Shown: positions 7,875 through 57,526 of the stretch, one piece after another
Layout: each line of letters opens with the position of its first letter
Position numbering within the stretch: position 1 is the stretch's first letter
Assembly (NCBI GenBank): GCA_026389555.1
Contig: JAPLHQ010000072.1
Coordinates: 23,215 to 87,214 of the forward strand
Direction: 5' to 3'
DNA length: 64,000 bases
Source: Chloroflexota bacterium
Lineage (GTDB): Bacteria > Chloroflexota > Limnocylindria > Limnocylindrales > Limnocylindraceae
Made by a program: the position numbers and the translations under genes
Notes under the pieces: model-generated
The model's database searches: none
What the model was told of the DNA's origin: nothing
The model's input: the letters and a program-made list of their open reading frames with translations, nothing else

Positions 7875-9414
7875 GGCGAGGCGGGTGACGCGTTCGATCA
7901 ACGAGATCGGAGCCGGGCTCGCCCCATCGCGCCCAGGCTCACCGCTCGTCCTCCCGCTCACCCTTCATATCGTTGGCATCGGCGGCACTGCGGCAACGGG
8001 AGCCGCGCTCCACGCAGCGGCGCTTGGCGCGCTGGTGACCGGGTGTGACAGTCACCTAAGTCGTGAGACCGCTCTCATCCTTGAGGCAGCGGGGGTGAAG
8101 GTGAGCGATGAGAGCGACCTCGCCCCGGCGAGTCGGGCCACCCTTGTTGCGGTCTCAAAGGCGATCACCAGTACACAGCCGGATCACCCGCAACTCCACG
8201 CCGCACGGGCGGCCGGTGTCCCGATCGTCTCACTGCAGCAGGTGATCGCGGATGCCGCTGCGAGCCGCGGAGGGGCACTCCTGGGGGTTGCAGGGACGCA
8301 TGGGAAGACAACCTCCACCGGTTGGCTCCTCGCCGCGCTCCGCGCGTCAGGGCGAGACCCTTCTGCGTTCGTAGGTGGACCACTCCCAGCGGGGCAGGGG
8401 AGCCCAGCAGGCTCACCAGTCCACCTCGGGGGAGAGCAAGGCTTCATCGTGGAGGCAGACGAATACGGAGGAAACTTTGACCCGTACGCCGCAGACGCGG
8501 CCCTGATCCTCAACGTTGACTGGGATCACCCCGACATTTTCGCCGACCGTGCCGCCGCCGTCGCCACATTCGTTGCCTGGGGGGCGCCAGTTCTTCAACA
8601 CGGCGCGCTCGTAGTGAATGTTGGAGATGCTGGTGGTGCCGAGGCGGCCGCGGCGCTTGAGCAGCACGACCGGGGGAACCTCATTCGTTACGCCGTCCGT
8701 TCGCACGGACGCACAGAGACAGTCGCAGATGTCACTGCCGATCTTGAACTCGCCCCTGCGGGAGCGGTGCAACTCAGCAACCTGACGCTGAGTGAGCGAG
8801 CAGGCCAACTCGCCCCTGCGCTGGTTGAGCTGCAGGGGAAGACACTAACGATCGGCCTCCTTGGGGCGCACAACGCGGCGAATGCGCTCGGTGTGGCGAC
8901 CCTTGCCGCGACTTCAGGGGGAACGGGGGTGGGGATCACCGCGGCGCTCGCCGGCTACCCAGGGGTGGGGCGGCGAATGGAGGTGCGCTATGACCAGAAC
9001 GGGTTCACGGTGCTCGACGATTACGGCCACCACCCCACGGCGATTGACGCCACGATCTCCACGGTGCGCCTCCGCTACCCGGGGCGACCCCTCATTCTCG
9101 CTATTGAACCGCTGACCTATCACCGCACCGCAGCACTCCTCCCTGCGCTCGCGCGCTCATGTGCCGCCGCAGACCGGGTCGCAGTTGCCGAGATCTTTGC
9201 CGTCCGCGACACCGACCTGACGATCACGAGTGCTGCGAAGCTTGCCGCCGCGATCAGCGCATTCGGGACCCAGGCGGACGCACCAGGCTCGGTTGAGTCC
9301 ACTGCGGACGCGATCTACGCCGCACTCCCGGAGGGGGCAGTTGTCCTCGTGATGGGTGGGGGGCGCTCTACCGACCTTGCCACTCGACTCGCTGCGGCAC
9401 TCTCCGCGCGCTAG
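7858..9414 (+). CDS. murC: Mur ligase family protein, UDP-N-acetylmuramate--L-alanine ligase (MurC) or Mpl-type recycling ligase
   Basis: HIVGIGGTAATGAAL; GVAGTHGKTTSTGWL (P-loop); VEADEYGGNFD; LNVDWDHPDIF; GAHNAANALGVA; DDYGHHPTAI. Not embedded in a dcw cluster. The start probably lies downstream of 7858, which overlaps yajQ. Confidence 0.65.
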   Translation: MKTIAEARRVTRSINEIGAGLAPSRPGSPLVLPLTLHIVGIGGTAATGAALHAAALGALVTGCDSHLSRETALILEAAGVKVSDESDLAPASRATLVAVSKAITSTQPDHPQLHAARAAGVPIVSLQQVIADAAASRGGALLGVAGTHGKTTSTGWLLAALRASGRDPSAFVGGPLPAGQGSPAGSPVHLGGEQGFIVEADEYGGNFDPYAADAALILNVDWDHPDIFADRAAAVATFVAWGAPVLQHGALVVNVGDAGGAEAAAALEQHDRGNLIRYAVRSHGRTETVADVTADLELAPAGAVQLSNLTLSERAGQLAPALVELQGKTLTIGLLGAHNAANALGVATLAATSGGTGVGITAALAGYPGVGRRMEVRYDQNGFTVLDDYGHHPTAIDATISTVRLRYPGRPLILAIEPLTYHRTAALLPALARSCAAADRVAVAEIFAVRDTDLTITSAAKLAAAISAFGTQADAPGSVESTADAIYAALPEGAVVLVMGGGRSTDLATRLAAALSAR

Positions 9415-11021
9415 CTCCCTTCAGGCCCGCCTGAATACTGATCTGGGCGTGGCGGCTCGCTCCCTGCAACGCGTGCGGCGTGCTCCTGCGCAGCCGGGCT
9501 GACCGGACGGGCGAAGAGTGGGTGCCCCTCTGAGGTGAGACATCGGCCACTCGCAAGATCCCACTGCCAGCCGTGGATGCTGCAGGTGAGGGTCTCGCCA
9601 TCTTCCGTGCCGAAGCGTGTTAGGTCCGCCTTCATATGTGGGCAGCGCCGCTGCACCTGCCAGCCGTTCAGGTCGAAGGTCCCCTCGGTGGGGCCATTCT
9701 CGGCGTAGAAGCCCTCTGCGTACTGGATCCGCGCCACGGAGAGGCACTTGAACCAGGTGTAGAGGTAGTCGTTGTAAGAACCGCGCCTCCAGGCGCTGAA
9801 GCGCAGCGAGAGGAAGAGTGAGTTGACCCAGTCATCGGTCCGCGTCCGGACGAGATGATCGAGGAGAAGGCGGGGGATCGTGAATCGGAAGTCAACGTCG
9901 CGTCCGTCATCAGCGATCACGGCGCGCTCAGGGAAGTCGAGCAGAAGGCTGGTGTCGTCCGTCTGGATGCGGACCGGTCCGCCGATTCCATCGCAAACAC
10001 GCGGCCCGAGCGCCATCAGCGGTTCAAACCACGCTTTCATGTCAGGCAGGAGATCCGTGCGGGAACCCGCCCACGACGCCTTCTCCGCGGCGATGCGTGG
10101 CGCCACGTCCTTTGCGTACGTGCGCAAGTACGCCTCCTTATCGGCAAAGACGCTCTGCACAGACAGTTCGCCCTCTAGATGCTGCACGTCAAACCTTCCG
10201 CTCGCATCGAACGCACCGATGCTCCCAGGGAGCATCAGAACCGCCTGTTGACCTGCCTGTTGCAGATAGTCAACCATCAGGCGCTGATCCGGGAAGATTG
10301 AGTCCTCGGCGTTGTTGACGTCGTTCCACTGGAAGAGCTCGTCATCCAAAAAGCAGGGGGGTCCTGCGGAGGGGATCACGACGCGTGGGCTGATGATCTC
10401 CACGTAGCGAGCGGCACGGGCGAACTGTGCGGTGCGCTTCTTCTTTGCGAGCGCCTCCTTGGCGCGTTCAGGTAGCTCGTAGACCATCGGGTACCAGATG
10501 GCACCGCTGAACTGCAACAGACAGATATCAATCGCCCCCTGGACCAAGAGGCGATCGGGGTCGATCGGCCGGCTGTCGTTCAGGTTGAGCAGGCGCTCTA
10601 CGCCGTCGTCCACCAGGAGGGCAGAGTCACCGATCGGCCCATCCGTTGGCGCTGTGAGCGCCTCCACGACCAGCGTGAGGCCGCCGTGTTGCACCGGAAC
10701 GCCTGAGACCGTCTCAATAAAGCTGCTGAAGCCGAGTCCAGTGAGCGCCTCACGCAGCTCCGGAAGCGGGTAGGCGGGGAGGATGACTGTGGCCTCCTTG
10801 CTGCACCAGCGGGCGAGCCACTCAGGGTCAAAATGATCTCGGTGGAGGTGGCTGATATAGAGATAGTCCGTGGCGCCTAACGCGGCATGATCCAGGCCGT
10901 CGTTCCGCGGGTACGGAAACCAGCCTGCGTAGTACGCCGGGTTGAACCAGGGGTCGCAGAGGATGGAGCCGTGGGCGGTATGAATCTTCACGCCAGCCTG
11001 AGCGATGAATTCGATCCGCAT
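9411..11021 (-). CDS. fusion protein: N-terminal metallo-beta-lactamase-fold domain + C-terminal Rieske [2Fe-2S] domain
   Basis: N-terminus has YISHLHRDHFDPEW (HxHxDH). C-terminus has RCPHMKADLTRFGTEDGETLTCSIHGW, i.e. CxH-x17-CxxH (Rieske). Confidence 0.7.
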   Translation of the reverse strand: MRIEFIAQAGVKIHTAHGSILCDPWFNPAYYAGWFPYPRNDGLDHAALGATDYLYISHLHRDHFDPEWLARWCSKEATVILPAYPLPELREALTGLGFSSFIETVSGVPVQHGGLTLVVEALTAPTDGPIGDSALLVDDGVERLLNLNDSRPIDPDRLLVQGAIDICLLQFSGAIWYPMVYELPERAKEALAKKKRTAQFARAARYVEIISPRVVIPSAGPPCFLDDELFQWNDVNNAEDSIFPDQRLMVDYLQQAGQQAVLMLPGSIGAFDASGRFDVQHLEGELSVQSVFADKEAYLRTYAKDVAPRIAAEKASWAGSRTDLLPDMKAWFEPLMALGPRVCDGIGGPVRIQTDDTSLLLDFPERAVIADDGRDVDFRFTIPRLLLDHLVRTRTDDWVNSLFLSLRFSAWRRGSYNDYLYTWFKCLSVARIQYAEGFYAENGPTEGTFDLNGWQVQRRCPHMKADLTRFGTEDGETLTCSIHGWQWDLASGRCLTSEGHPLFARPVSPAAQEHAARVAGSEPPRPDQYSGGPEGS

Positions 11022-11106: not shown

Positions 11107-11129
11107 AGGGGGTGTTGGCGCCACCCCCT
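11107..11129 (-). terminator. possible weak intrinsic terminator just after the hflX stop
   Basis: 8-bp GC stem AGGGGGTG/CACCCCCT with a 7-nt loop. On the minus-strand RNA it is followed by CUCUUGGUU, only a partial U-tract. Confidence 0.3.
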
Positions 11130-11136
11130 GAGCCCG

Positions 11137-12432
11137 TTACAGCACCCGGCCGATCGCCCGCCGTTTCAACTGCTGCAGTTCTGCCGCAACATCTGTTGGC
11201 GCAAACCCCGTCACATGCAGCGCCGCATCTTCATATGCCACCTGAATCCCGGTCCGGGCTCGGAGCGCCTCAACTTCGCCAACCACCCCATACGGGAGCT
11301 CCAGGTCGATCGCCACCCCCTGCCGCTGCAGGACCTCCTCTAGGTGATCCCTAAGCTCTGGCAGTCCATCCCCTGTTGCTGCGGCCACCCGGAGCGACCC
11401 TTCAATGAGGGCACCAGCATTCGGGCGATCGCACTTATTGGCGACCGCGATTCGCGGCTTCTCATCCACGCCGAGCTCCTCGAGTACTTCCTGCACCGTG
11501 GCGCGGTGCTCCGCCCAGTGACGGTCTGAGGCGTCGACGACCTCAAGGAGAAGGTCGGCGCGTGCAACCTCCTCAAGCGTGGCGCGGAAGGCGTCCACGA
11601 GCTGGTGCGGCAGCTTGTGAATGAAGCCCACCGTATCGGTGACAATCGCATGTGCGCCACTTGGAAGGCGTAAGCGTCGACTCGTTGGATCAAGCGTAGC
11701 GAAGAGTCGATCCTCTGCAAGTACTGCGTTGCTCCCAACAAGACTGTTCAGTAGCGTTGACTTGCCGGCGTTGGTGTACCCAACGATTGCCACCGTTGGC
11801 ACGCCACCGTCTGAGCGCGCACGTGCGCCAGTCTCCCGGCTGCGACGCACCTGGTCAACACGCGCCTTCATCAGTGAGATGCGGTCGCGGATCAGGCGGC
11901 GGTCAGTCTCGAGCTGTGACTCGCCAGGTCCACGCGTCCCGATGCCACCGCCGGTGCGTGAAAGGTGCGTCCAGAGCTTTGTCAGCCGCGGCAGTTGATA
12001 TTCGAGTTGCGCGAGCTCAACCTGCAGTCGCCCCTCATGTGTCCGCGCATGCATCGCAAAGATGTCGAGGATGAGACGGCTCCGGTCAATCACCTTCACT
12101 TCAAGGACCTCTTCAAGGCCGCGCTGCTGTGTAGGCGAAAGCTCATCATCAGCGATGAGGAGCGTGAACCCGGTCTCAGCCTTTGCAGCGAGTAGTTCGC
12201 GCGCCTTACCAGCGCCGATGTAGGTATCTGGATCGGCGTGACGTCGCTGTTGCCACTCGGCGCCAACAATCTCAGCGCCAGCGGTACGCGCGAGGCTTGC
12301 CAACTCTTCGAGGCTATCCACTGCCGGCCAACCAGGATCGTTCCCAGTATCTACCGCAATCAAGAATGCACGCTCAACTGGTGGGGCAATCTCAATCGGT
12401 GCTCGTCGCTGGCGCACTGCGCGCTCCCCCAC
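11137..12432 (-). CDS. hflX: GTPase HflX
   Basis: HflX N-terminal domain followed by a G-domain (AIVGYTNAGKSTLLNSL, DTVGFI, NKCD) and LLLEVVDASD. Confidence 0.9.
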   Translation of the reverse strand: MGERAVRQRRAPIEIAPPVERAFLIAVDTGNDPGWPAVDSLEELASLARTAGAEIVGAEWQQRRHADPDTYIGAGKARELLAAKAETGFTLLIADDELSPTQQRGLEEVLEVKVIDRSRLILDIFAMHARTHEGRLQVELAQLEYQLPRLTKLWTHLSRTGGGIGTRGPGESQLETDRRLIRDRISLMKARVDQVRRSRETGARARSDGGVPTVAIVGYTNAGKSTLLNSLVGSNAVLAEDRLFATLDPTSRRLRLPSGAHAIVTDTVGFIHKLPHQLVDAFRATLEEVARADLLLEVVDASDRHWAEHRATVQEVLEELGVDEKPRIAVANKCDRPNAGALIEGSLRVAAATGDGLPELRDHLEEVLQRQGVAIDLELPYGVVGEVEALRARTGIQVAYEDAALHVTGFAPTDVAAELQQLKRRAIGRVL

Positions 12433-41597: not shown

Positions 41598-42083
41598 TCA
41601 GCCGTGGTCGACAGGCCCTGCGATCGTCTCGCAGGCGTGCTCCAGCACCGGGAGAAGGATGGCGAGACCATCGCGGACTGCGCCGCTCCCACCAGGCATG
41701 TTGACGATCAGACTGCCGCGCAGGACGCCTGCAACGCCGCGCGAGAGGATCGCCGCCGGCGTCTGCGAGCGACCGAGCATGCGAATCGCTTCTGGAATGC
41801 CTGGGATCTCTCGCTCAAGAAGCGGCTTCGTTGCATCAGGTGTTACATCACGCGGCGTCAGTCCCGTGCCACCTGTTGTCAAGATGACGTTGACACTCCC
41901 CGCGCGTTCACTCAGCAGTGCGCTGATCTGGTCGCGCTCGTCTGGAACTGTTGCGCGAGAGACCTCCCAGCCGTGCGCCTCCATTGCGGCGGCGGCGAGG
42001 GTTCCCGAGCGATCTTCTCGCGTCCCAGCGGAGACTGAGTCGCTCACCGTGACAATAAGGACGCTGCGCTTCTCGTCAGCCAT
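41598..42083 (-). CDS. moaB: molybdenum cofactor biosynthesis protein MoaB/MogA family
   Basis: MADEKRSVLIVTVSDSVSAGTREDRSGTLAAA...ILTTGGTGLTPRDVTPDA. Start set at the internal Met; overlaps the moaC end by 8 nt. Confidence 0.85.
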   Translation of the reverse strand: MADEKRSVLIVTVSDSVSAGTREDRSGTLAAAAMEAHGWEVSRATVPDERDQISALLSERAGSVNVILTTGGTGLTPRDVTPDATKPLLEREIPGIPEAIRMLGRSQTPAAILSRGVAGVLRGSLIVNMPGGSGAVRDGLAILLPVLEHACETIAGPVDHG

Positions 42084-42561
42084 CTCGCCTCCACGTGCCA
42101 CTCGCGCCGCCAGACTTCTCCAAAAGCTGCGTTGGCCCAATGACCGCACCCCGATCAATCGCCTTGATCATGTCGTAGACGGTGAGCGCCGCAACTGAGG
42201 CGGCGGTGAGTGCCTCCATCTCTACTCCGGTCTGTCCGGTGCAGTGCACCTCGGCGCGGATCGTTACCGCACCAGCGGCACGATCCACCGAACAGTCAAC
42301 CTGCACCAGTGAGAGAGCGAGTGGGTGGCAGAGTGGGATCAGCTCGGCGGTACGCTTCGCCGCCTGGACGCCAGCAAGTTCGGCGGTACTCAGGACCGCA
42401 CCCTTCGGTGTCTCTCCGCGCTCAATCAGATCAAGTACTTCGGCGGAGACGGCGACGCGGCTCGCAGCAACGGCGCGCCGATCGGTGATGGGCTTCGCGC
42501 CAACATCAACCATCGTTGCGCGCCCATCTGCACCAACATGCGTGAGGCGTTGCTCTTCCAT
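42076..42561 (-). CDS. moaC: cyclic pyranopterin monophosphate synthase MoaC
   Basis: LTHVGADGRATMVDVGAKPITDRRAVA...AELIPLCHPLAL...GVEMEALTAASVAALTVYDMIKA. Confidence 0.93.
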   Translation of the reverse strand: MEEQRLTHVGADGRATMVDVGAKPITDRRAVAASRVAVSAEVLDLIERGETPKGAVLSTAELAGVQAAKRTAELIPLCHPLALSLVQVDCSVDRAAGAVTIRAEVHCTGQTGVEMEALTAASVAALTVYDMIKAIDRGAVIGPTQLLEKSGGASGTWRRDG

Positions 42562-42570
42562 GCGCTGATC

Positions 42571-43929
42571 CTAGCCGTTTGGCGCGGTGATGCGACGTGA
42601 TGCGCGCGGAAGTGGATGCAGCTCAATCACTTCGCCAGCGGCGTACTCAGCAATCTCTTCTGGCACGACCCCCAAATAGTCGGTCCGCGCCAGCACTGAG
42701 ACCTGATGGCTCCCCTGCTCGCCTGCCAGTCGTACCCGTACGCGACCTAATGGATCGTGCAGCGATGCGCCGTCTTCGTCGCGGAGTGCAGCGAGGCGAA
42801 GGAAGGAGCGCCTCCCGAGCGGACTCTCGACGCGCTCCTCAAGCAGTCCAACAGCTCGTAGCCCGCGTGCCGGTCGTCCGCAGAGCGCCCGAAGGAGTGG
42901 GAGCGCAACCTCAACGCCTACGACAAACGCACTCACCGGATTCCCAGGGAGGCCGATCGCCCAGAGTGCGCCATCGCCGCCAGCGCGCCGTCGACCGAGG
43001 AGGAGTGGCTTCCCGGGTTGAATTGCAAGGCGCCAGACGACGAGCTCAAAGGTCGTTGCGAGCGCTGCACCAACATGATCGTGCGCGCCCACGCTGACTC
43101 CTCCTGTTGTCACCAGCAGGTCAGCCTGCGCGGCGAGCGCGGCAACGACCGCACCGGTTGCCTCGGCCGTATCACCAACATGTGCACGCGCAACGACCTC
43201 GCCTCCTTCCGCAGCAATGAGTGCGGCGAGAGCGGGGCCATTACTGTCGCGAATCCCTCCATCAGCCGCGTCGTTGAGTAGTTCATCACCCGTTGTCAGC
43301 AGTGCAACCCTTGGTCGCCGCACAAGGGAGAGATCCGCTGCACCACTCGAAAAGATGACGGCGAGCAGCCCAGCATCAATCGTCGCACCGGCTTCAGCGA
43401 GAAGACTCCCCACGCGCTGATCCTCGCCGCGTCGGCGAATGTGCGCACCGACTTTGACGCGACCGCTCACCCATACATGCGCTGGAAGCTGCGCTGGGAC
43501 GCGCTGCAGTCGTACTCCGCCGCGATCTGGATCCGCGATGCTGCTCCGCTCCACAGGGATCACTGTTGTGCCACCTTCTGGAATTGGTGCGCCAGTAGCA
43601 ATGCGCTGACACTCTCCATCGCGCAGCGGCGCGGCACTTAGTGCGCGACCTGCAGCCGCATCTCCAACGCAGGCGAGTCGCCGCGGCGCGCCGCTGGACG
43701 CTCCATCCCCATCAGCCAACGTCGTAACCCAGCCATCCATTGCCGAAACATCAAACGGGGGGTGATCAACAGCCGCGTAGAGCGGTTCGGCGAGCGTCCG
43801 CCCGATCAGCGAGGCGGCTGTCTCATCACTAATAGCGATTCGCTCCGCAGGGAGCGGCGTGACCTGCGCCAAGAGACGGGCAAGAAGATCGTCAATGCGC
43901 TCAAGCTCCGCTGGAACCGGCTCGCTCAC
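42571..43929 (-). CDS. moeA: molybdopterin molybdenumtransferase MoeA
   Basis: ...VTPLPAERIAISDETAASLIGRTLAEPLYAAVDHPPFDVSAMDGWV and a GGVSVGAHD MoCF-binding domain. The track start at 44001 overlaps the upstream gene. Alignment to the MoeA N-terminus puts the true start near 43917-43929. Confidence 0.88.
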   Translation of the reverse strand: MSEPVPAELERIDDLLARLLAQVTPLPAERIAISDETAASLIGRTLAEPLYAAVDHPPFDVSAMDGWVTTLADGDGASSGAPRRLACVGDAAAGRALSAAPLRDGECQRIATGAPIPEGGTTVIPVERSSIADPDRGGVRLQRVPAQLPAHVWVSGRVKVGAHIRRRGEDQRVGSLLAEAGATIDAGLLAVIFSSGAADLSLVRRPRVALLTTGDELLNDAADGGIRDSNGPALAALIAAEGGEVVARAHVGDTAEATGAVVAALAAQADLLVTTGGVSVGAHDHVGAALATTFELVVWRLAIQPGKPLLLGRRRAGGDGALWAIGLPGNPVSAFVVGVEVALPLLRALCGRPARGLRAVGLLEERVESPLGRRSFLRLAALRDEDGASLHDPLGRVRVRLAGEQGSHQVSVLARTDYLGVVPEEIAEYAAGEVIELHPLPRASRRITAPNG

Positions 43930-45470
43930 TGAAGGCTCTGGAGCAGAAGGATTGAGGCGACCGCTCCGAGCGGTGCGTTGAGCCAGAGGAATCGGCGCCA
44001 TGCAGCACGGGCCGCCCCCCAGCTTGGCCTCCCACGGAGAAGTGGGAGCACCGAGCAGCCGCTTGCGATCGGAATAGCCGCAGCGAGCTGCATCAGCAGG
44101 TTGGGCTGAGCAAGGAGTGGTAGTGCGGCGAGCAGATAGACGAGCAGAATCATCTGCGGGGTACGGCGCTCCCCAAGCAGTGTTGCGACTGTGGCAATCC
44201 CGCTTCGCTTGTCAGCCGACACGTCTTGCAGCGCGCCAAGCGCATGGCTCGCAACGCCCCAGAGCGCAAGGGCCAGAAGTGGCGCGATCCACGCTGAATC
44301 CAACGTGACGCCGAGGAGGAGCCCTGCGGCCGGCGGGATCAGAAAATGTATTGAGGAGACAGCCGAGTCAAGCAGTGGAACCGCACGCGCCCGCACAAGC
44401 CAGGGAGCGCTGTAGAGCGTTGCAAAGAGGATCGCAATCAGCGGCAGAAGGTTCGCCGGCGCAGGGAGGGCGATCGCCATAATCAGCGCCGGCACCAGTC
44501 CCGCCGCCACGAGCGCAACGCGAAGCGGGGCAAGGTCGCGGCCGCGAAGGAGCGCACCCTCCGCACCACCCTTGCGCGGATTTGCCGCGTCACTGGCACG
44601 GTCGTAGAGATCATTGATGCCGTAGAGGTAGAGGTTGTACCCAGCTCCCCACCAGAGGATCGGAGCAAGCAGCCATCCGCCGAGCGTCTCTCCAGCACCG
44701 GCGGCGAGCACACCTCCAACGAATGGGAGCGCGGTGTTTACCCACGAGATTGGCCGCGCAGCGAGGAAGATCCTCCATGCGCTCCCCTCCCCTAGCAGCA
44801 CCTCTGCACGCAAGCGCAACGCCACACCTGCGAGCCCAACGGCATAAAGCAGATCCTCGACTGGCGCTGCGCCAAGCAAGACGCCACTACGTGGCTCCCC
44901 TGGATACGTCAGCACTCCTAGGTGGCAGAGCACGTTATCGAAGATCAGTGTCAACACGATGAAGACGAACGCAGCGACGCGAGTACCGTGATCGCGCCGT
45001 AGTAGTTGCGCGGCAAGCGCCACCCCCGCTCCGGCAAGCACCCCAGCCGCAACGCTGTATTCAGCGCCACTCAAGAGCGCCAGCAGCAACCCGCCACTCA
45101 GTGCGCCAATGCAGGCATCGAACACGCCGCGAGGAAGACCGAGCGTTACGCCGCTGGAAACTCTCCCCTTCCCAACAGCATCAGCAACAACCACAAGAAG
45201 TGATGTGATGCCGAAGAGGAGGAGTGGCTCTTCAATAGGAAACCCGCGACCGAGAGGGCCAGCGCCAGGGAGGGAGAGCACCGTTGCGCTAGAAGGTGTC
45301 GCAAACCACCCTCGAGCGAGCCCAAGTGTATCCACGAGCAGAAACCCAATCGTCGTTGCAATCACAACCGGAAGTAGCACCTCGCGTCGCGTCTGCCGAC
45401 TCCAGCGCAGCGCAAGGCCACGGATGCCAACGATCGAGCCGATGATTGAAAGCAGATAGAGCGCGCTCAT
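43926..45470 (-). CDS. membrane fusion protein: N-terminal lycopene-cyclase-domain half (CrtYc/Yd-like) + C-terminal UbiA-family prenyltransferase (lycopene elongase-like)
   Basis: N-terminal 110 aa has three TM helices and GFPIEEPLLLFGITSLL (PxEE-xxF cyclase-domain signature). C-terminus has YGINDLYDRASDAANPRKGG (NDxxDxxxD), ALQDVSADKRSGIATVA (DxxxD..G..T) and multiple TM helices. Confidence 0.6.
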   Translation of the reverse strand: MSALYLLSIIGSIVGIRGLALRWSRQTRREVLLPVVIATTIGFLLVDTLGLARGWFATPSSATVLSLPGAGPLGRGFPIEEPLLLFGITSLLVVVADAVGKGRVSSGVTLGLPRGVFDACIGALSGGLLLALLSGAEYSVAAGVLAGAGVALAAQLLRRDHGTRVAAFVFIVLTLIFDNVLCHLGVLTYPGEPRSGVLLGAAPVEDLLYAVGLAGVALRLRAEVLLGEGSAWRIFLAARPISWVNTALPFVGGVLAAGAGETLGGWLLAPILWWGAGYNLYLYGINDLYDRASDAANPRKGGAEGALLRGRDLAPLRVALVAAGLVPALIMAIALPAPANLLPLIAILFATLYSAPWLVRARAVPLLDSAVSSIHFLIPPAAGLLLGVTLDSAWIAPLLALALWGVASHALGALQDVSADKRSGIATVATLLGERRTPQMILLVYLLAALPLLAQPNLLMQLAAAIPIASGCSVLPLLRGRPSWGAARAAWRRFLWLNAPLGAVASILLLQSLQ

Positions 45471-46217
45471 CTATCGCCTCCGTCGTCGTGCGGCACGGAA
45501 GCCGGCCGCCGCGGTAACGACGAGCACAGCACAGAATCCAATCGCCGCCGCCACCCAGAAGGTTTCGGGGTAGAGCTGCACCAGACGATCCGTTGCGGGA
45601 TTAAATGTCCAGGTCCCTGCTGGGAAGAGCAGCTGATGTGCTGCGGTGAACGTTGCATCAAAGGCGAAGAGGAAGGCGCCTCCAACGAGCGCAGCTCCCG
45701 CGCCAAGCAGCACCGCTCCATCGCGAACCCCTTGCAGCGCCCATCGCCTTCGTCGCACGGCGAGCAGAGAGAGGAGAGCAAACGCACCTGCGCCGACCAG
45801 AACGAGCGCACGAAAGAGGACGCCAACATCTACAAGATGTGAGCGTTCAGCAGCGCTCAAGAAGACGTCGTCGCCCAGTTGTGCGTTAAAGGCTCCACCG
45901 AAGAGGAGATCGCGTACGAGCGCATCAGAGAGCGCATACGCAGTCGGTGGTTCAACTCCGAGAAGGGCGGGGGCGCTCGAAAGGTCGAGCAGCGCATGGA
46001 CGACGGGTGGAAGAAGGAAGAGGAGCAGCGTGAGAGCGAGCAGCGCAACCAGCACCACAACGGCCAGCAGCGCTCGCCGCGCGACGCGGCGCAACGCGTT
46101 CACGCGTCGACGAGGACGCGACCCTGCTCCCACCATGACCTGACTGAGAGCGGATCTGGCGCAACTCGTCCGAGCAGGACTGCCGCTCGTGTTACCGCAG
46201 CCTGGAAGTCTCCCCAC
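45471..46217 (-). CDS. DUF1461/TIGR01906-type integral membrane protein (Lit-like, lipoprotein intramolecular transacylase family)
   Basis: TM helix; DLSSAPALLGVEP; FLSAAERSHLVDVGVLF (E..H..DV motif I associate with DUF1461/Lit); a further TM block. Start codon is GTG per the track and the N-terminus is uncertain. Stop abuts the start of the downstream fusion gene. Confidence 0.45.
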   Translation of the reverse strand: MGRLPGCGNTSGSPARTSCARSALSQVMVGAGSRPRRRVNALRRVARRALLAVVVLVALLALTLLLFLLPPVVHALLDLSSAPALLGVEPPTAYALSDALVRDLLFGGAFNAQLGDDVFLSAAERSHLVDVGVLFRALVLVGAGAFALLSLLAVRRRRWALQGVRDGAVLLGAGAALVGGAFLFAFDATFTAAHQLLFPAGTWTFNPATDRLVQLYPETFWVAAAIGFCAVLVVTAAAGFRAARRRRR

Positions 46218-46528
46218 TCGCTCTCCGCGAGTGCCTGAATCCCGGGGTAGCCCGCCGCTGCGAGCAGCTGATGTTCGGATGGGCCGAAGAAGGCGAGATT
46301 CAGGAGCAGTGCCTCATCTCGCCACTCGCCAACATCGGCAAGGGAGGCGTCGGTCTGGTCGGCAAGGGTCTGGCGACGTGTTGGGGTCTCGCTCCGTTCA
46401 AGGAGGAGGCCCGTTGTGAAGATCCCCTGCGCCTCAAGGCGCGCGAGGTGGACCGGCTCGATGCGTGTGAGCTGAACGATCGCTGGCATCAGTACCTCCT
46501 CGCGGCATCGTAGCGCCTCCCCCCTCAC
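46100..46528 (-). CDS. DUF4332 domain protein (tandem HhH-like motifs)
   Basis: LTRIEPVHLARLEAQGIFTTGLLLERSETPTRRQTLADQTDASLADVGEWRDEALLLNLAFFGPSEHQLLAAAGYPGIQALAE fits the DUF4332 two-repeat pattern. Probable start is Met at 46489. Confidence 0.5.
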   Translation of the reverse strand: MRGEALRCREEVLMPAIVQLTRIEPVHLARLEAQGIFTTGLLLERSETPTRRQTLADQTDASLADVGEWRDEALLLNLAFFGPSEHQLLAAAGYPGIQALAESEWGDFQAAVTRAAVLLGRVAPDPLSVRSWWEQGRVLVDA

Positions 46529-46541
46529 AGGCGTGCCGAGG

Positions 46542-46570
46542 CAGGCTCAATTGTTACAAACAACAGCCTG
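46542..46570. promoter_or_regulatory. imperfect palindrome/candidate operator in the divergent promoter region between the DUF4332 operon and the rhodopsin gene
   Basis: CAGGCT-CAA-TTGTT-ACA-AACAA-C-AGCCTG (outer 6-bp and inner 5-bp inverted repeats). A -10-like CATAAT lies at 46614-46619. RBS AGGGAGGG at 46653-46660, 3 nt before the ATG. Confidence 0.35.
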
Positions 46571-46663
46571 CGCAACCCCCGTAGCGGCTAGTGAATCTTT
46601 CGGTCATTTGCGCCATAATCGCCCCAGCGGTGCGTTGTGCCGCCAAAAGGTTAGGGAGGGTCA

Positions 46664-47407
46664 ATGAGTCCAGAGTTGGGATATCAGTTGGTCTATAACT
46701 TTATGTCCCTCGCCATCGCGGCGATGGGTGCGAGCTTCTTCTTCTTCGTCTCCGCAAGGGGATCGCTGAAGGAAGGGAACCGCATGGCAGTCACGCTGTC
46801 AGCCACTGTTGTGCTGATCGCGTTCTACCACTACGTCCGCATCTTCGACTCGTGGGTCGCCACGGCGGGTGTCGGAAACCCAGGCGCGTTCAACGAGGGC
46901 TACCGCTACGTTGACTGGCTCCTCACGGTGCCACTCCTCGTCGCAGAGCTGATCCTCGTCCTTCGCTTGGACAAGAAGGTTGAGAGCAAGCTGATCCAGC
47001 GAAACGTGCTCTACGCCTTCCTCATGATCGCAACCGGATACATCGGCGAGTTGGATGTCCAGACCTCCGTGGTTCTTGACTCCTCACGCACGATCTGGGG
47101 CGCTATCAGCACGATCTTCTTCGTCCTGATCTTGCGCGACCTCTTCGGTGGGATTGATGCTTCCTTCAAGAAGCAGAGCAAGGAGATCCAGGGGATCTTC
47201 AAGGTACTCCGCGTTGTGCTTATCGCCACGTGGGGTGTCTATCCAATCGCCTATCTCCTTCCAACGATTTCGACCAGCCTCGGCCTGACGGCTGGGGACG
47301 GGCTCGTGCTGAAGCAGATCGGTTACACGATTGCGGACATCCTGGCGAAGCCAGGCTACGGTCTCCTCATCTGGAAGATCGCAACCCTGAAGAACTCAGG
47401 CCGCTAA
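46664..47407 (+). CDS. type-1 microbial rhodopsin, proteorhodopsin/xanthorhodopsin-like outward proton pump (DTE motif)
   Basis: 247 aa, 7 TM. Helix C RYVDWLLTVPLLVAE gives D84/T88/E95 (BR D85/T89/D96 positions). L at the PR-105 tuning position. His56 in AFYHYV (PR His75 equivalent). Helix F ATWGVYPIAY. Helix G TIADILAKPGYGLLIW with counterion D225 and Schiff-base K229. Strong RBS. GC about 56 % against about 68 % in the flanks. Confidence 0.9.
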   Translation: MSPELGYQLVYNFMSLAIAAMGASFFFFVSARGSLKEGNRMAVTLSATVVLIAFYHYVRIFDSWVATAGVGNPGAFNEGYRYVDWLLTVPLLVAELILVLRLDKKVESKLIQRNVLYAFLMIATGYIGELDVQTSVVLDSSRTIWGAISTIFFVLILRDLFGGIDASFKKQSKEIQGIFKVLRVVLIATWGVYPIAYLLPTISTSLGLTAGDGLVLKQIGYTIADILAKPGYGLLIWKIATLKNSGR

Positions 47408-47418
47408 ACAGATCGAAC

Positions 47419-47468
47419 ACGCGACTCGTGTCGCGTAGAAAAGGCCCGGGGGAAACCCCGGGCCTTTT
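47419..47468. terminator. tandem hairpins; bidirectional rho-independent terminator between rhodopsin (+) and tRNA-Pro (-)
   Basis: Hairpin 1 is ACGCGAC-tcgt-GTCGCGT (47419-47436). Hairpin 2 is GGCCCGGGG-GAAA-CCCCGGGCC (47443-47464), flanked by AAAA on the 5' side and TTTT on the 3' side. Confidence 0.75.
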
Positions 47469-47482
47469 CATATCTTGTGATC

Positions 47483-47559
47483 TGGTCGGAGCGACAGGAT
47501 TTGAACCTGCGACCTCTTGCCCCCCAGGCAAGCGCGCTACCAAGCTGCGCTACGCTCCG
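47483..47559 (-). tRNA. tRNA-Pro (anticodon GGG)
   Basis: Reverse complement CGGAGCGTAGCGCAGCTTGGTAGCGCGCTTGCCTGGGGGGCAAGAGGTCGCAGGTTCAAATCCTGTCGCTCCGACCA. C1-G72 is typical of bacterial tRNA-Pro. Anticodon stem CUUGC/GCAAG with loop CUGGGGG. Encoded CCA. Confidence 0.88.
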
Positions 47560-47594
47560 TTTAACTACGCTCCGTTTAACTACGCTCCGTTTGA
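47550..47594. repeat. three tandem 15-nt direct repeats (CTACGCTCCGTTTAA); the first copy is the tRNA-Pro 5' end
   Basis: Copies at 47550-47564, 47565-47579 and 47580-47594 (last copy ...TTTGA). On the minus strand the tRNA's first 10 nt CGGAGCGTAG recur twice in the 5' leader, separated by TTAAA. Confidence 0.8.
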
Positions 47595-47633
47595 TTTGTG
47601 AGCCGAGATTCTAGCAGCGCTCACCGTGAGTGG

Positions 47634-54878: not shown

Positions 54879-55820
54879 TTAGGCGCGTGGGTGGGCGCGC
54901 TTGTACGCGTCACGGACGTGGCTCCCAAGCAGGTGCGTGTAGAGCTGCGTTGTGGCGATATCAGCGTGCCCGAGCAGTTCTTGGACCACGCGAAGGTCGG
55001 CGCCGCCATCAAGGAGGTGCGTCGCAAACGAGTGGCGCAACGTGTGCGGGTGAATCTCCCTGCCAAGACCAGCGGCGCTCGCGGCGGTCCGGATCGTCGT
55101 CCACGCCGCCTCACGGCGAAGGCGAGCGCCACCACGCGCCAACAGCAGCGCCGATGGCTCAGGGGCTGCGCCGCCGCTTCGAGCGGAAGCGCCAGCATGC
55201 GCCGCGCGTCCTCCGTTTAGATATGTCCGCACCGCATCAGCCGCCGGCTCTCCGATTGGGACCACCCGTTCGCGCCGTCCCTTCCCGAAAAGTCGCACCG
55301 TCCCCTCGGCGAGATCAATCCCATCAAGATTGAGATCCACGATCTCACTGACGCGACCACCAGATCCGTAGAGCAACTCACCAAGTGCGCGCGAGCGCTG
55401 TGCGTCAGCCGCGGCGAGTTCGCCACTGTCACGCGGAGCGGCGAGCGCCACAAGGAGTCGTTCCACTTCGTCTGGTCGCAGCACGGCGGGGAGGCTGCGT
55501 CGCGTGCGCGGCAGATCAATCTCACCACTCAGCGACCGTGTCAGCTCACCCTCTCCCTCTGCAAATCGGTAGAGCACACGGAGCGCTGCGGCGCGGCGAC
55601 GCTTGGTGGAGACAGCAACGTTCGCATCGGCCAGCCACTCCTGCGCCGCCTTCGCGTCGTTGCGCCACGCCTCTCCCGCACCGAGCGATGCGGCAAACGA
55701 ACGGTAGTCGCCACGGTAGGCCTCAAGTGTGCGCGGTGAGAGGTTCCGCTCCACGCTGAGGTAAACGAGACACGACGCAATGATGCGATCGAGCGGGCTA
55801 CTCGACGCCGTGCCGCTCAT
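54879..55820 (-). CDS. xerD: tyrosine site-specific recombinase XerD/XerC family
   Basis: N-terminal SAM-like domain (LVYLSVERNLSPRTLEAYRGD); C-terminal catalytic domain with R..H..R..Y (HTLRHSFATHLLDGGADLRVVQELLGHADIATTQLYTHL). Confidence 0.8.
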   Translation of the reverse strand: MSGTASSSPLDRIIASCLVYLSVERNLSPRTLEAYRGDYRSFAASLGAGEAWRNDAKAAQEWLADANVAVSTKRRRAAALRVLYRFAEGEGELTRSLSGEIDLPRTRRSLPAVLRPDEVERLLVALAAPRDSGELAAADAQRSRALGELLYGSGGRVSEIVDLNLDGIDLAEGTVRLFGKGRRERVVPIGEPAADAVRTYLNGGRAAHAGASARSGGAAPEPSALLLARGGARLRREAAWTTIRTAASAAGLGREIHPHTLRHSFATHLLDGGADLRVVQELLGHADIATTQLYTHLLGSHVRDAYKRAHPRA

Positions 55821-57526
55821 GATCCGTGACGGCCCGCCTTCACCAGCAGCTCGCGTGCAGCCGCCTCAGCTCCACTCCCAGCGCCATCTCCAGCAAGCAT
55901 TGAGGCGAGCTCAGCGACTCGCTCAGCATCGGAGAGGCGTCGCACCTGCGTGATGGTTCGCCCACCCTCCTCGCGCTTCGACACATGCAGGTGCACATCA
56001 GCTTGCGCCGCAACTTGTGGAAGGTGGGTGACACAGAGGACCTGATGCTGTGTGGCGATGCGCTTCAGGCTACGACCGAGCGTCTCACCCGCTCGCCCAC
56101 CGAGCCCAGCATCAATCTCATCAAAGATCAGTGTCCGTCCCTCACTTGCGTCACTGAGCGCCTCCTCCAGCGCGAGGGAGACACGACTCAACTCGCCACC
56201 CGAAGCGATCTTCGCGATGGGGGCGGCGGGCTCACCAGCGTTTGGCGCGAAGAGATACTCCACCTCATCCCCGCCGCTGCGATCAACAAGGCACGGCGCA
56301 CCATCAACAAGTGGATCGTCGCCCCCGCCACGACGAGGTTGGAGGTCAATCTCAAACGTGGGTGGCAGAGCGAGCGCGCTGAGCGCCGTATTCACCGCCT
56401 TCTTCAAGCTGCTCGCTCCTGCAGTTCTTGCAGAACGCAGTTTCAGCGCCAGTGCGCCGATCTGTGCCGCGAGTTCGGCACGCTCCTTAGTGATCGCCCC
56501 CTGACGCGTTACCGCCCCCTCCAGTCGCTGCACTTCAGCAGCGGCCCGCTCCAGCGCTTCAGCAAGACCGGCCTCATCGGTGCGGAACCTTCGCTCAAGC
56601 GAGAGGATCAGGCCGAGTCGCTCCTCAATTTCTGCAACCGGACGCGGCGGAGCTTCAGCGGCGCCACGTCCCGCAACGTCGCGTGCAAGGTCATCAATCT
56701 CAATCGCTAGCGCGCTAATGCGCTCTACTAGTGGCGCTGCACCCTCGTCCAGCTTGCGTAGCTCCCCCGCCGTGCGGTCTAAGAGGCGTGACTGTCCCCG
56801 CATCCCCGAGTCATCGCCATCAAGGAGCTCGAGGATCTCGCCACGGAGCGTCTCAATGCGGTCGCCACTGGATGCGCGGCGCAGCTCTTCGCGGAGCCGC
56901 TCCCCCTCACCAGGCTCAACCGCCGCAGCGAGAAGATCGTCACGCTCGGCACGCGCAATGACGAGCAGCGCCTCGCGACGAGCGCCGTCACCGCCGAGCG
57001 CCTCAAACTCACTCAGAAGGCTCGCCCGCGCCTCAACGAGTGACCCAATCTCTTCACGAAGTGCAAGGCTCTTCGACCAGCGATCAAGCAAATCTCGCTG
57101 ACGGGATCGATCACCGAGCCGCTGCTGATCATGTTGGCCGTGGATTTCAATGCGTGGCGCCACCTCTGCGGCGAGTCGTCCGATCGTGACGAGTTCATCA
57201 TCGATGCGCGCCACAGAGCGACCCTCCGCGTGAACTTCACGGACGATGATCTGCTCGCCACCTTCGCCGCTCATCAGAAGATCCACTCGCAACCGATCCT
57301 CACCAGTACGAATCGCCCCAGCATCTGCACGCGCGCCGCGTGCTAGCGCAAGGGCATCCACGATGAGACTCTTTCCTGCGCCAGTCTCGCCCGTCAGGAC
57401 GGTGAGGCCGGGGCCGAACTCTACGCGTACGGCATCAATGATGGCGAGCCCTGCAACGCCAAGCTCACGAATCTGTGAGCCGCCCGCCGCGCTACCTTTC
57501 GCCGCACTCACTTTCGCCGCACTCAC
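55817..57526 (-). CDS. recN: DNA repair protein RecN
   Basis: LTVLTGETGAGKSLIVDALAL Walker A, coiled-coil, and C-terminal signature/Walker B (LIFDEIDAGLGG). GTG start; the first 10 codons are a 15-nt tandem duplication. Confidence 0.92.
   Translation of the reverse strand: MSAAKVSAAKGSAAGGSQIRELGVAGLAIIDAVRVEFGPGLTVLTGETGAGKSLIVDALALARGARADAGAIRTGEDRLRVDLLMSGEGGEQIIVREVHAEGRSVARIDDELVTIGRLAAEVAPRIEIHGQHDQQRLGDRSRQRDLLDRWSKSLALREEIGSLVEARASLLSEFEALGGDGARREALLVIARAERDDLLAAAVEPGEGERLREELRRASSGDRIETLRGEILELLDGDDSGMRGQSRLLDRTAGELRKLDEGAAPLVERISALAIEIDDLARDVAGRGAAEAPPRPVAEIEERLGLILSLERRFRTDEAGLAEALERAAAEVQRLEGAVTRQGAITKERAELAAQIGALALKLRSARTAGASSLKKAVNTALSALALPPTFEIDLQPRRGGGDDPLVDGAPCLVDRSGGDEVEYLFAPNAGEPAAPIAKIASGGELSRVSLALEEALSDASEGRTLIFDEIDAGLGGRAGETLGRSLKRIATQHQVLCVTHLPQVAAQADVHLHVSKREEGGRTITQVRRLSDAERVAELASMLAGDGAGSGAEAAARELLVKAGRHGS

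Follow-up and report, generated by a model that had tools for sequence, protein, structure and literature searches.

The rhodopsin locus and its product

This report concerns a 954-bp segment (positions 46529–47482) of a 64-kb stretch of Chloroflexota DNA, the whole of which is referred to as the window. The segment carries one gene, for a xanthorhodopsin-type microbial rhodopsin, and lies against a proline tRNA gene. An earlier interpretation of the same DNA (the sequence-only reading) had taken the low GC content of this segment and its position beside a tRNA as the signature of horizontal acquisition; we find that it is very probably a native, long-resident transcription unit for a xanthorhodopsin-type proton pump of Candidatus Limnocylindrus, family Limnocylindraceae. 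The features of the locus are as follows.

43926–45470, minus strand: LycCyc/UbiA gene, a lycopene-cyclase domain fused to a UbiA prenyltransferase (Pfam UbiA)
45471–46217, minus strand: gene for a Lit/TIGR01906-family membrane protein, given as the longest open reading frame (ORF) (Pfam PF07314; NCBIfam TIGR01906 under the family cut-off)
46103–46489, minus strand: DUF4332 gene, 129-amino-acid form, divergent neighbour of the rhodopsin (Pfam PF14229)
46551–46558, plus strand: candidate regulatory element TTGTTACA, conserved upstream of the rhodopsin start
46614–46619, plus strand: CATAAT, -10-like hexamer of the presumed rhodopsin promoter, from alignment with relatives
46654–46659, plus strand: Shine-Dalgarno sequence GGGAGG, read from the sequence, 4 nt 5′ of the ATG
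46664–47407, plus strand: ORF of the xanthorhodopsin-type microbial rhodopsin, 247 amino acids, with DTE motif and retinal-binding Lys (Pfam PF01036)
47419–47436, plus strand: small hairpin directly after the rhodopsin stop codon (predicted fold of 47405–47482)
47438–47469, no strand assigned: palindromic intrinsic terminator, 14-bp stem with A-tract and T-tract (terminator scan and folding)
47483–47559, minus strand: tRNA-Pro(GGG), convergent with the rhodopsin and with its 3′ end toward the terminator (ARAGORN; Rfam tRNA, 65.5 bits)
47550–47594, minus strand: three copies of a 15-bp tandem repeat, CGGAGCGTAG plus TTAAA on the tRNA strand (repeat search, family D5)
47608–47616, minus strand: TGCTAGAAT, extended -10-like element of the presumed tRNA-Pro promoter, from its conservation

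As the sequence-only reading had described, these approximately 0.95 kb consist of an upstream region (135 bp within the segment), the rhodopsin ORF and a terminator hairpin (47438–47469), and they end exactly at the tRNA-Pro gene, whose 3′ end at 47483 is 75 bp from the rhodopsin stop codon. The transcription unit would comprise the upstream element, a promoter, the ORF and the terminator. The GGAGG of the Shine-Dalgarno sequence is kept in relatives, and the -10 hexamer has aligned GATAAT, CATAAT or ATACTT-type counterparts in seven of these; a strict sigma-70 scan found no full rhodopsin promoter, and the putative promoter is assigned from the conserved -10-like hexamer only. The terminator has 10 GC pairs in its 14-bp stem followed by TTTTC, the arrangement that defines an intrinsic (Rho-independent) terminator, and a folding energy of -44.2 kcal/mol (z = -7.8). 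It is probably bidirectional, ending the convergent rhodopsin and tRNA-Pro transcripts, and a terminator-like minus-strand match from the same scan overlaps the small hairpin at 47419–47436. An Rfam scan of 46–48 kb gave no match beyond the tRNA. Among the neighbours, the true start of the Lit gene is probably downstream of 46217, and the LycCyc/UbiA product matches the NCBIfam models CarR_dom_SF and PRK13105 prenyltransferase, both slightly below their cut-offs.

The ORF encodes a seven-helix domain matching Pfam PF01036 (Bac_rhodopsin) over residues 14–241 (E = 4.3e-40), and its best match of solved structure is the Salinibacter ruber xanthorhodopsin 3DDL (residues 7–244, E = 1.6e-53). The top PDB matches (3DDL, 9HFK, the psXR structure 9WFA, Gloeobacter 6NWD, 7YTB and 5AZD) have E values from 1e-53 to 1e-44, and proteorhodopsins and sodium-pumping rhodopsins are weaker (1e-21 to 1e-27). 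The DTE segment RYVDWLLTVPLLVAEL aligns column by column with RYVDWLLTVPLLTVEL of 3DDL; these residues of helix C are the proton acceptor Asp, a Thr, and the proton donor Glu. The retinal-binding Lys of helix G lies in DILAKPGYG, which aligns with DVLAKAGYG of 3DDL, and a Gly occupies the position of xanthorhodopsin (XR) G156 (TIWGAIS, aligned with GLWGFLS of XR), where a small residue permits a carotenoid antenna. Given these residues, the protein is predicted to be a light-driven outward proton pump. It shares with the Salinibacter xanthorhodopsin clade, which includes 6NWD, the Thermus protein 5AZD and Kin4B8 (7YTB), the RYVDWLLTVPLL...E (DTE) motif, the retinal Lys, the Gly of the antenna position (antenna binding is putative) and a composition rich in FYMINK residues; it differs in being shorter (247 amino acids) and in that the nearest clusters outside Limnocylindraceae are just 45–49% identical to it.

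The gene itself is already known as the xanthorhodopsin-type proton pump of Ca. Limnocylindrus. Its 98–100% identical counterparts carry the name bacteriorhodopsin or xanthorhodopsin and come from Candidatus Limnocylindrus or from Chloroflexota metagenome-assembled genomes (MAGs), and orthologues across Limnocylindraceae are 77–100% identical. It is the same gene as the published rhodopsins of SL56 and Ca. Limnocylindrus (Mehrshad et al. 2018, PMC6169038; Nat Commun 2026, PMC13212565), which are described there as proton pumps gained by the freshwater family and, in the former, as xanthorhodopsin-like and green-tuned. Their accessible text does not describe the anatomy of the locus, i.e. the tRNA-Pro junction, the upstream element, the co-distribution with LycCyc/UbiA and the empty sites reported below. 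The sequence-only reading had also suggested a search for the nearest donor lineage, and none that is close was found: in a protein library representing approximately 15 billion proteins the rhodopsins of the family fall into a single cluster, no other full-length cluster is more than 49% identical, and those outside the family are almost all unnamed, the sole named one being from Jiangellales (46%).

Base composition and codon usage of the rhodopsin gene

The low-GC patch is real. The segment has a GC content of 57.2%, compared with a window mean of 63.3% (standard deviation 1.9% for stretches of 954 bp), and at about three standard deviations below the mean it is the lowest 954-bp stretch of the window, with only 0.16% of such stretches being as low. 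The flanks had been put at 68–70%, which is too high: the neighbouring genes measure 63–67% (LycCyc/UbiA 63.3%, Lit 64.0%, DUF4332 65.7% and GpsA 66.7%). Within the ORF the GC content at the first, second and third codon positions (GC1, GC2 and GC3) is 0.54, 0.39 and 0.79 respectively, and among the approximately 52 genes of the window this GC3 ranks first, the others having values from 0.58 to 0.77. The dip is thus confined to positions 1 and 2, which mirror the amino-acid composition, and at silent sites the gene is the opposite of what import from a low-GC source would give, so that the proposed compositional foreignness does not hold.

In the protein Ile, Phe, Tyr, Lys and Leu are abundant and Ala, Arg, Pro and Glu are scarce; FYMINK residues make up 28.5% of it (14.0% in the rest of the window) and GARP residues 24.4% (37.6% in the rest). 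The Salinibacter xanthorhodopsin structures 3DDL and 9HFK have the same FYMINK/GARP profile, and the dip therefore reflects the protein family and not the history of the DNA; the low total GC is a by-product of the amino acids that the rhodopsin fold demands, which lower GC1 and GC2. When the GC content of each gene is predicted from the protein sequence that it encodes and the synonymous codon choices made in all other genes, expected and observed values correlate well across 52 genes (r = 0.87), and the rhodopsin, expected at 54.9 ± 1.0%, is observed at 57.6% (z = +2.8). It is GC-rich, not GC-poor, for the protein that it encodes.

The codon usage of the ORF had been described as atypical in its use of TAT, TTT and GAT, and the counts are otherwise. 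TTT accounts for 1 of 14 Phe codons (TTC 13/14) and GAT for 2 of 9 Asp codons (0.22, compared with 0.52 in other genes; GAC 7/9), TAT is at the background rate (4/12, or 0.33, against 0.35 elsewhere), and ATC (19/22) and AAC (6/6) are likewise preferred, such that the preference for C-ending codons is stronger here than in the rest of the window. By chi-square distance of codon usage the rhodopsin ranks tenth of 52 genes, and its dinucleotide signature (delta*) is ordinary, 26% of windows being equally or more deviant. A positive GC excess or high GC3 is also seen in genes for ThrRS, IF-3, EF-P, RNase J and an Rv3818-like Rieske protein, and the z-scores of ThrRS, the Rieske protein and RNase J equal or exceed that of the rhodopsin; an assignment of GroEL and DnaK to this set was wrong, the genes being those just listed. 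In a test of codon likelihood toward the high-GC3 translation genes the rhodopsin ranks first, although this is a weak test with a small and heterogeneous reference set. From these patterns we infer that the rhodopsin may be under translational selection as a highly expressed gene. Its silent sites are fully host-adapted, with a C-ending preference in the same direction as that of several translation genes, and the high GC3 would be that of a highly expressed gene resisting the erosion of GC in the genus.

Some further compositional observations can be made on this gene and on others in the window. For each of its six Pro residues the rhodopsin uses CCA, a codon with a background frequency of 34%. 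Its orthologues use CCG or CCA alone, with CCG in the high-GC lineages giving way to CCA as host GC falls, and the CCC and CCT codons read by the adjacent tRNA-Pro(GGG) are never used. The most AT-shifted synonymous composition of the window is that of MoeA (42571–44001; GC3 0.58, z = -4.1 relative to the amino-acid-based expectation), and among nearby genes any oddity at silent sites belongs to MoeA, if to any, rather than to the rhodopsin. MoeA and MoaC (42076–42561) are at this position in the window and in the relatives L041, L038 and L042, but L004 and L036/L037 lack them. The patch with the second-lowest GC in the window (approximately 4650–4950) lies within a gene for a 754-amino-acid protein (3846–6110) whose GC content is under the expectation (z = -3.2), as is that of a RecN/SMC-like gene at 55817–57526 (z = -3.5); both may be weakly expressed and further along in the genus-wide GC erosion.

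Conservation of the locus and its upstream element

We gathered the homologous locus from relatives with a locus GC of 58–73% (cited here by L numbers) and compared the composition in nine of them. GC1 (about 0.55) and GC2 (about 0.39) of the rhodopsin are constant across the nine, and GC3 follows the host.

Host GC 58–63%: rhodopsin GC3 0.78–0.79 (0.84–0.85 in L003 and L011)
Host GC 67%: rhodopsin GC3 0.88
Host GC 73%: rhodopsin GC3 0.94

In these relatives the GC3 of the rhodopsin equals or exceeds that of the neighbouring genes. It follows that the silent sites have changed in situ along with the host, unlike those of an unameliorated import.

The gene order is shared as well. In the occupied arrangement, referred to as type A, the order is LytB-Der-GpsA-tRNA-Pro-[rhodopsin, opposite strand]-DUF4332-Lit-LycCyc/UbiA, and it is found in the window, in L001, in four Limnocylindrus species representatives (L006–L009) and in L041, and also in two deeper lineages, L036/L037 (GpsA 63–64% identical to that of the window) and the 73% GC lineage L004/L005 (GpsA 65% identical). 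Two contigs are incomplete: L011 shows the near part of the order before it ends, and that of L010 stops 577 bp beyond the tRNA, its relative L041 carrying the unit. The unit is thus present in every locus of the Limnocylindrus core whose contig reaches the site, plus the two deeper lineages. An identical locus throughout the clade was what the sequence-only reading had itself considered evidence against horizontal acquisition, and this is largely what is observed. The tRNA-Pro gene is at the same position in every relative examined, with or without the rhodopsin, and every type-A relative, the 73% GC lineage among them, keeps the terminator hairpin at the rhodopsin stop. The rhodopsins of the window and L004 are 90% identical, compared with 65% for GpsA and 50% for Lit, so that the gene is much better conserved than its neighbours. 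A contig search with GpsA recovered six Limnocylindrus loci only, plus unrelated phyla, and the nearest GpsA contexts outside the family (L039 and L040, 46–49% identity) have a different synteny and are uninformative.

Of the 13 rhodopsin-bearing loci scanned, 11 have a single copy of the upstream element TTGTTACA, which in each case lies on the rhodopsin strand, about 105–145 bp upstream of the rhodopsin start; the whole 64-kb window contains it once. These 11 are the window, L001, L002 (where the neighbour gene is different), L004–L009, L036 and L037; the two loci without it are L003, where an assembly gap falls at this point, and L011, where the contig stops within the ORF. A scan of L038, where the site between tRNA-Pro and DUF4332 is empty, did not find it. 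From this distribution TTGTTACA is a candidate operator for a regulator. In L036 it lies within a perfect palindrome, TGTTACAG-N4-CTGTAACA.

The LycCyc/UbiA gene is co-distributed with the rhodopsin. In type-A lineages it is at the same locus, separated from the rhodopsin by DUF4332 and Lit, and in L002 (8349–9896) and L003 (3175–4425) the two are adjacent and divergent, the L002 pair (rhodopsin 83% identical to that of the window) and the similar pair of L003 being outside the type-A order, with that of L002 in a different neighbourhood. It is possible, and we suggest it tentatively, that the rhodopsin and LycCyc/UbiA constitute a functional module whose two genes have been retained, lost or moved as a pair on at least two occasions in Limnocylindraceae. 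If so, the fusion enzyme would make the carotenoid needed by the pump, as an antenna or as the precursor of retinal, and TTGTTACA would be the regulatory site of the module, possibly a light-responsive one. Downstream of the rhodopsin L003 has genes for DUF1761, a P450 and a second UbiA protein. An assembly gap of about 100 N (approximately 4460–4560) lies in or beside its UbiA-family gene adjoining the rhodopsin, and the 416-amino-acid call for that gene is probably truncated.

The tRNA-Pro flank and the origin of the unit

The first ten nucleotides of the tRNA-Pro gene are indeed repeated, as the sequence-only reading had noted, but the repeat does not mark an integration event. It comprises three 15-bp units, one spanning the 5′ end of the tRNA (its first 10 nt) and two more within the leader, and it lies on the promoter (5′) side of the gene, away from the rhodopsin; its copy number varies among strains, with one in L008, two in L001 and three in the window, in an otherwise near-identical sequence. 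It is a tandem duplication of the slippage type, variable at strain level within the tRNA leader, and has no relation to any integration of the rhodopsin. The repeat sits between the TGCTAGAAT -10-like element and the 5′ end of the mature tRNA, and the extra copies put decoy 5′ strands of the acceptor stem into the leader. Upstream of the tRNA, GCTGCTAGAAT is kept in L001, L006–L008, L010 and L011.

The position of the unit resembles that of tRNA-associated genomic islands in that it is directly 3′ of the tRNA, whose 3′ end (47483) faces it, and in that some related lineages have the junction without it. It is unlike them in most other respects. No second copy of the 25-nt 3′ end of tRNA-Pro is present within the 64 kb with up to 3 mismatches allowed, no direct repeats bound the cassette within 42–49 kb, and no island integrase is found in or beside the insert in the window. 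The sole tyrosine recombinase (54879–55820) is Xer-like, lies beyond the tRNA at a distance of 7.3 kb, and belongs to a RecN-Xer-ScpA-ScpB housekeeping block that is kept in all lineages, including L043, which lacks the unit at this site. The synonymous composition and codon usage of the rhodopsin are not deviant, there is a single cargo gene, and the unit is conserved over the whole genus. Adjacency to the tRNA is not shown to be the mechanistic cause of any acquisition.

The few dozen bases from the 3′ end of tRNA-Pro to the rhodopsin terminator do constitute a small insertion hot spot. L006 and L007 have an insert of about 380 bp with an ORF for a 105-amino-acid membrane protein (L007 11111–11490, with its equivalent in L006), L010 has a different ORF for a 119-amino-acid membrane protein (11119–11695), and L041 has a 54-amino-acid lipoprotein-like ORF with an LAGC lipobox (9122–9611). 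Pfam gave no credible match for the small ORFs of L007, L010 and L041.

Several observations weigh against native, long residence. The rhodopsin is the sole opposite-strand gene in a long co-directional string, and with its own putative promoter and its terminator it is cassette-like. Both intergenic spacers around it are the lowest-GC spacers of the window (57–58%), and its amino-acid composition departs even from that of other membrane proteins in the window. In the comparisons that the sequence-only reading had called for, the tetranucleotide correlation of the segment with the window is in the lowest 1%, although three other regions are alike in this. Sister families are reported to be without rhodopsins (PMC13212565), and a horizontal origin at some depth is accordingly likely. 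Genomes lacking the cassette at this site also exist: three deep lineages (L038, L042 and L043) have a clean empty junction in which tRNA-Pro is followed by DUF4332, which implies at least two losses or moves of the gene, or more than one gain; within the Limnocylindrus core, by contrast, all sites reached by a contig are occupied. Finally, the deep branching is poorly resolved in small neighbor-joining (NJ) trees, and the ancestral state can be stated as probable only.

The empty sites are nevertheless consistent with relocation or loss. At L038 39 bp separate the tRNA from DUF4332, which remains beside tRNA-Pro in the empty-site lineages, and neither a hairpin of terminator type nor any terminator relic was found at this junction. 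L038 and L042 also lack LycCyc/UbiA at the locus (the L043 contig stops before that position). Proteins of L038 share 90% clusters with the NCBI MAGs RIQ87, RIT06, MEI760xxxx and MFM8279xxx, and these MAGs also bear the L002-type locus with its rhodopsin; the L038 lineage therefore keeps a rhodopsin, at another locus. In NJ trees of the flanking genes (2–5 proteins), occupied L004 groups with empty L038 and L043 (bootstrap 0.94–1.0), a clean split of empty from occupied lineages appears in just 0–15% of bootstrap replicates, and the three empty lineages are interspersed with occupied ones; the first branch of Der+GpsA trees changes with or without Dayhoff recoding, and the one firm result is that L004 groups with L038 and L043, without regard to the root. 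In broad terms the rhodopsin tree agrees with the lineages. On these trees an occupied ancestor is the more parsimonious one, and independent insertions are unlikely to recreate the same arrangement and terminator. We therefore infer that the ancestor of the sampled family probably had the occupied state, the empty sites being secondary relocations or losses. The position of the gene between tRNA-Pro and DUF4332 would then be older than the split of the sampled Limnocylindraceae lineages. With residence predating this divergence, any horizontal acquisition is ancient and no longer visible in the composition.

Two explanations read the composition as foreign. In one, the unit came recently from a donor of lower GC, was integrated at tRNA-Pro and has yet to ameliorate; rhodopsins are well known for horizontal transfer, and this one is an autonomous opposite-strand unit in the lowest-GC stretch of the window, adjoining the 3′ end of a tRNA. 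We regard this as extremely improbable, given a GC3 at the top of the window, a GC content above the amino-acid-based expectation, codon claims that the counts contradict, a GC3 that tracks hosts from 58 to 73% GC, the same locus throughout the genus and two deeper lineages, and the lack of an att repeat, of an integrase and of any relative more than 49% identical outside the family. The converse, that the elevated GC3 (0.79, where 0.61–0.77 is typical of the window) and the excess over expectation (z = +2.8) betray a donor of higher GC than the host, is very improbable too: the excess is found in every lineage and scales with the host (0.78 at 58% GC, 0.88 at 67% and 0.94 at 73%), and the z-scores of other host genes (ThrRS, the Rieske protein and RNase J) are as large or larger. 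According to PMC13212565, moreover, the genus is losing GC, having fallen from 66.8% to 63.1% by synonymous GC-to-AT replacement, and retention under selection explains the pattern.

What stands of the original proposal is its older form, and an old acquisition or relocation of the rhodopsin is plausible; it is the compositional signature and the recent event that fall away. PMC13212565 is in keeping with this, reporting rhodopsins in Limnocylindraceae and none in the soil-related P2-11E, QHBO01 and CSP1-4, and placing the gain at the base of Limnocylindraceae from presence/absence data. A more specific version is that the unit was inserted long ago at the 3′ flank of tRNA-Pro and later ameliorated, L038, L042 and L043 representing the ancestral state and the rhodopsin and LycCyc/UbiA being adjacent elsewhere. 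The clean empty sites, with 39 bp between tRNA and DUF4332 and no relic of a terminator, are what this would leave; the pair is adjacent in L002 and L003, TTGTTACA travels with the rhodopsin, the same flank takes small inserts in L006/L007, L010 and L041, and empty-site L042 branches first when Dayhoff recoding is used (0.84). It would, however, need two or three independent insertions giving the same two-gene arrangement and terminator, no recombination scars are visible, and the grouping of occupied L004 with empty L038 and L043, together with the near-total failure to recover an empty/occupied split, runs counter to it. We consider it unlikely, and favor native, long residence of the unit at this site.

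These findings carry a caution, in that a six-point GC dip beside a tRNA mimics a textbook genomic island yet stems from the amino acids of a rhodopsin; total GC is not sufficient for calling horizontal transfer without GC3 and an expectation conditioned on the amino acids. The pump distinguishes the freshwater Limnocylindraceae from their soil relatives, and, with the genus otherwise losing GC, the bias of its gene toward C-ending codons and high GC3 suggests strong selection on rhodopsin expression. The co-distribution with LycCyc/UbiA, the conserved upstream element and the variable tRNA leader are mildly new. The first two of these, with the variable small ORFs of the tRNA flank, give small, testable leads to the regulation and supply of the rhodopsin in abundant lake bacteria.

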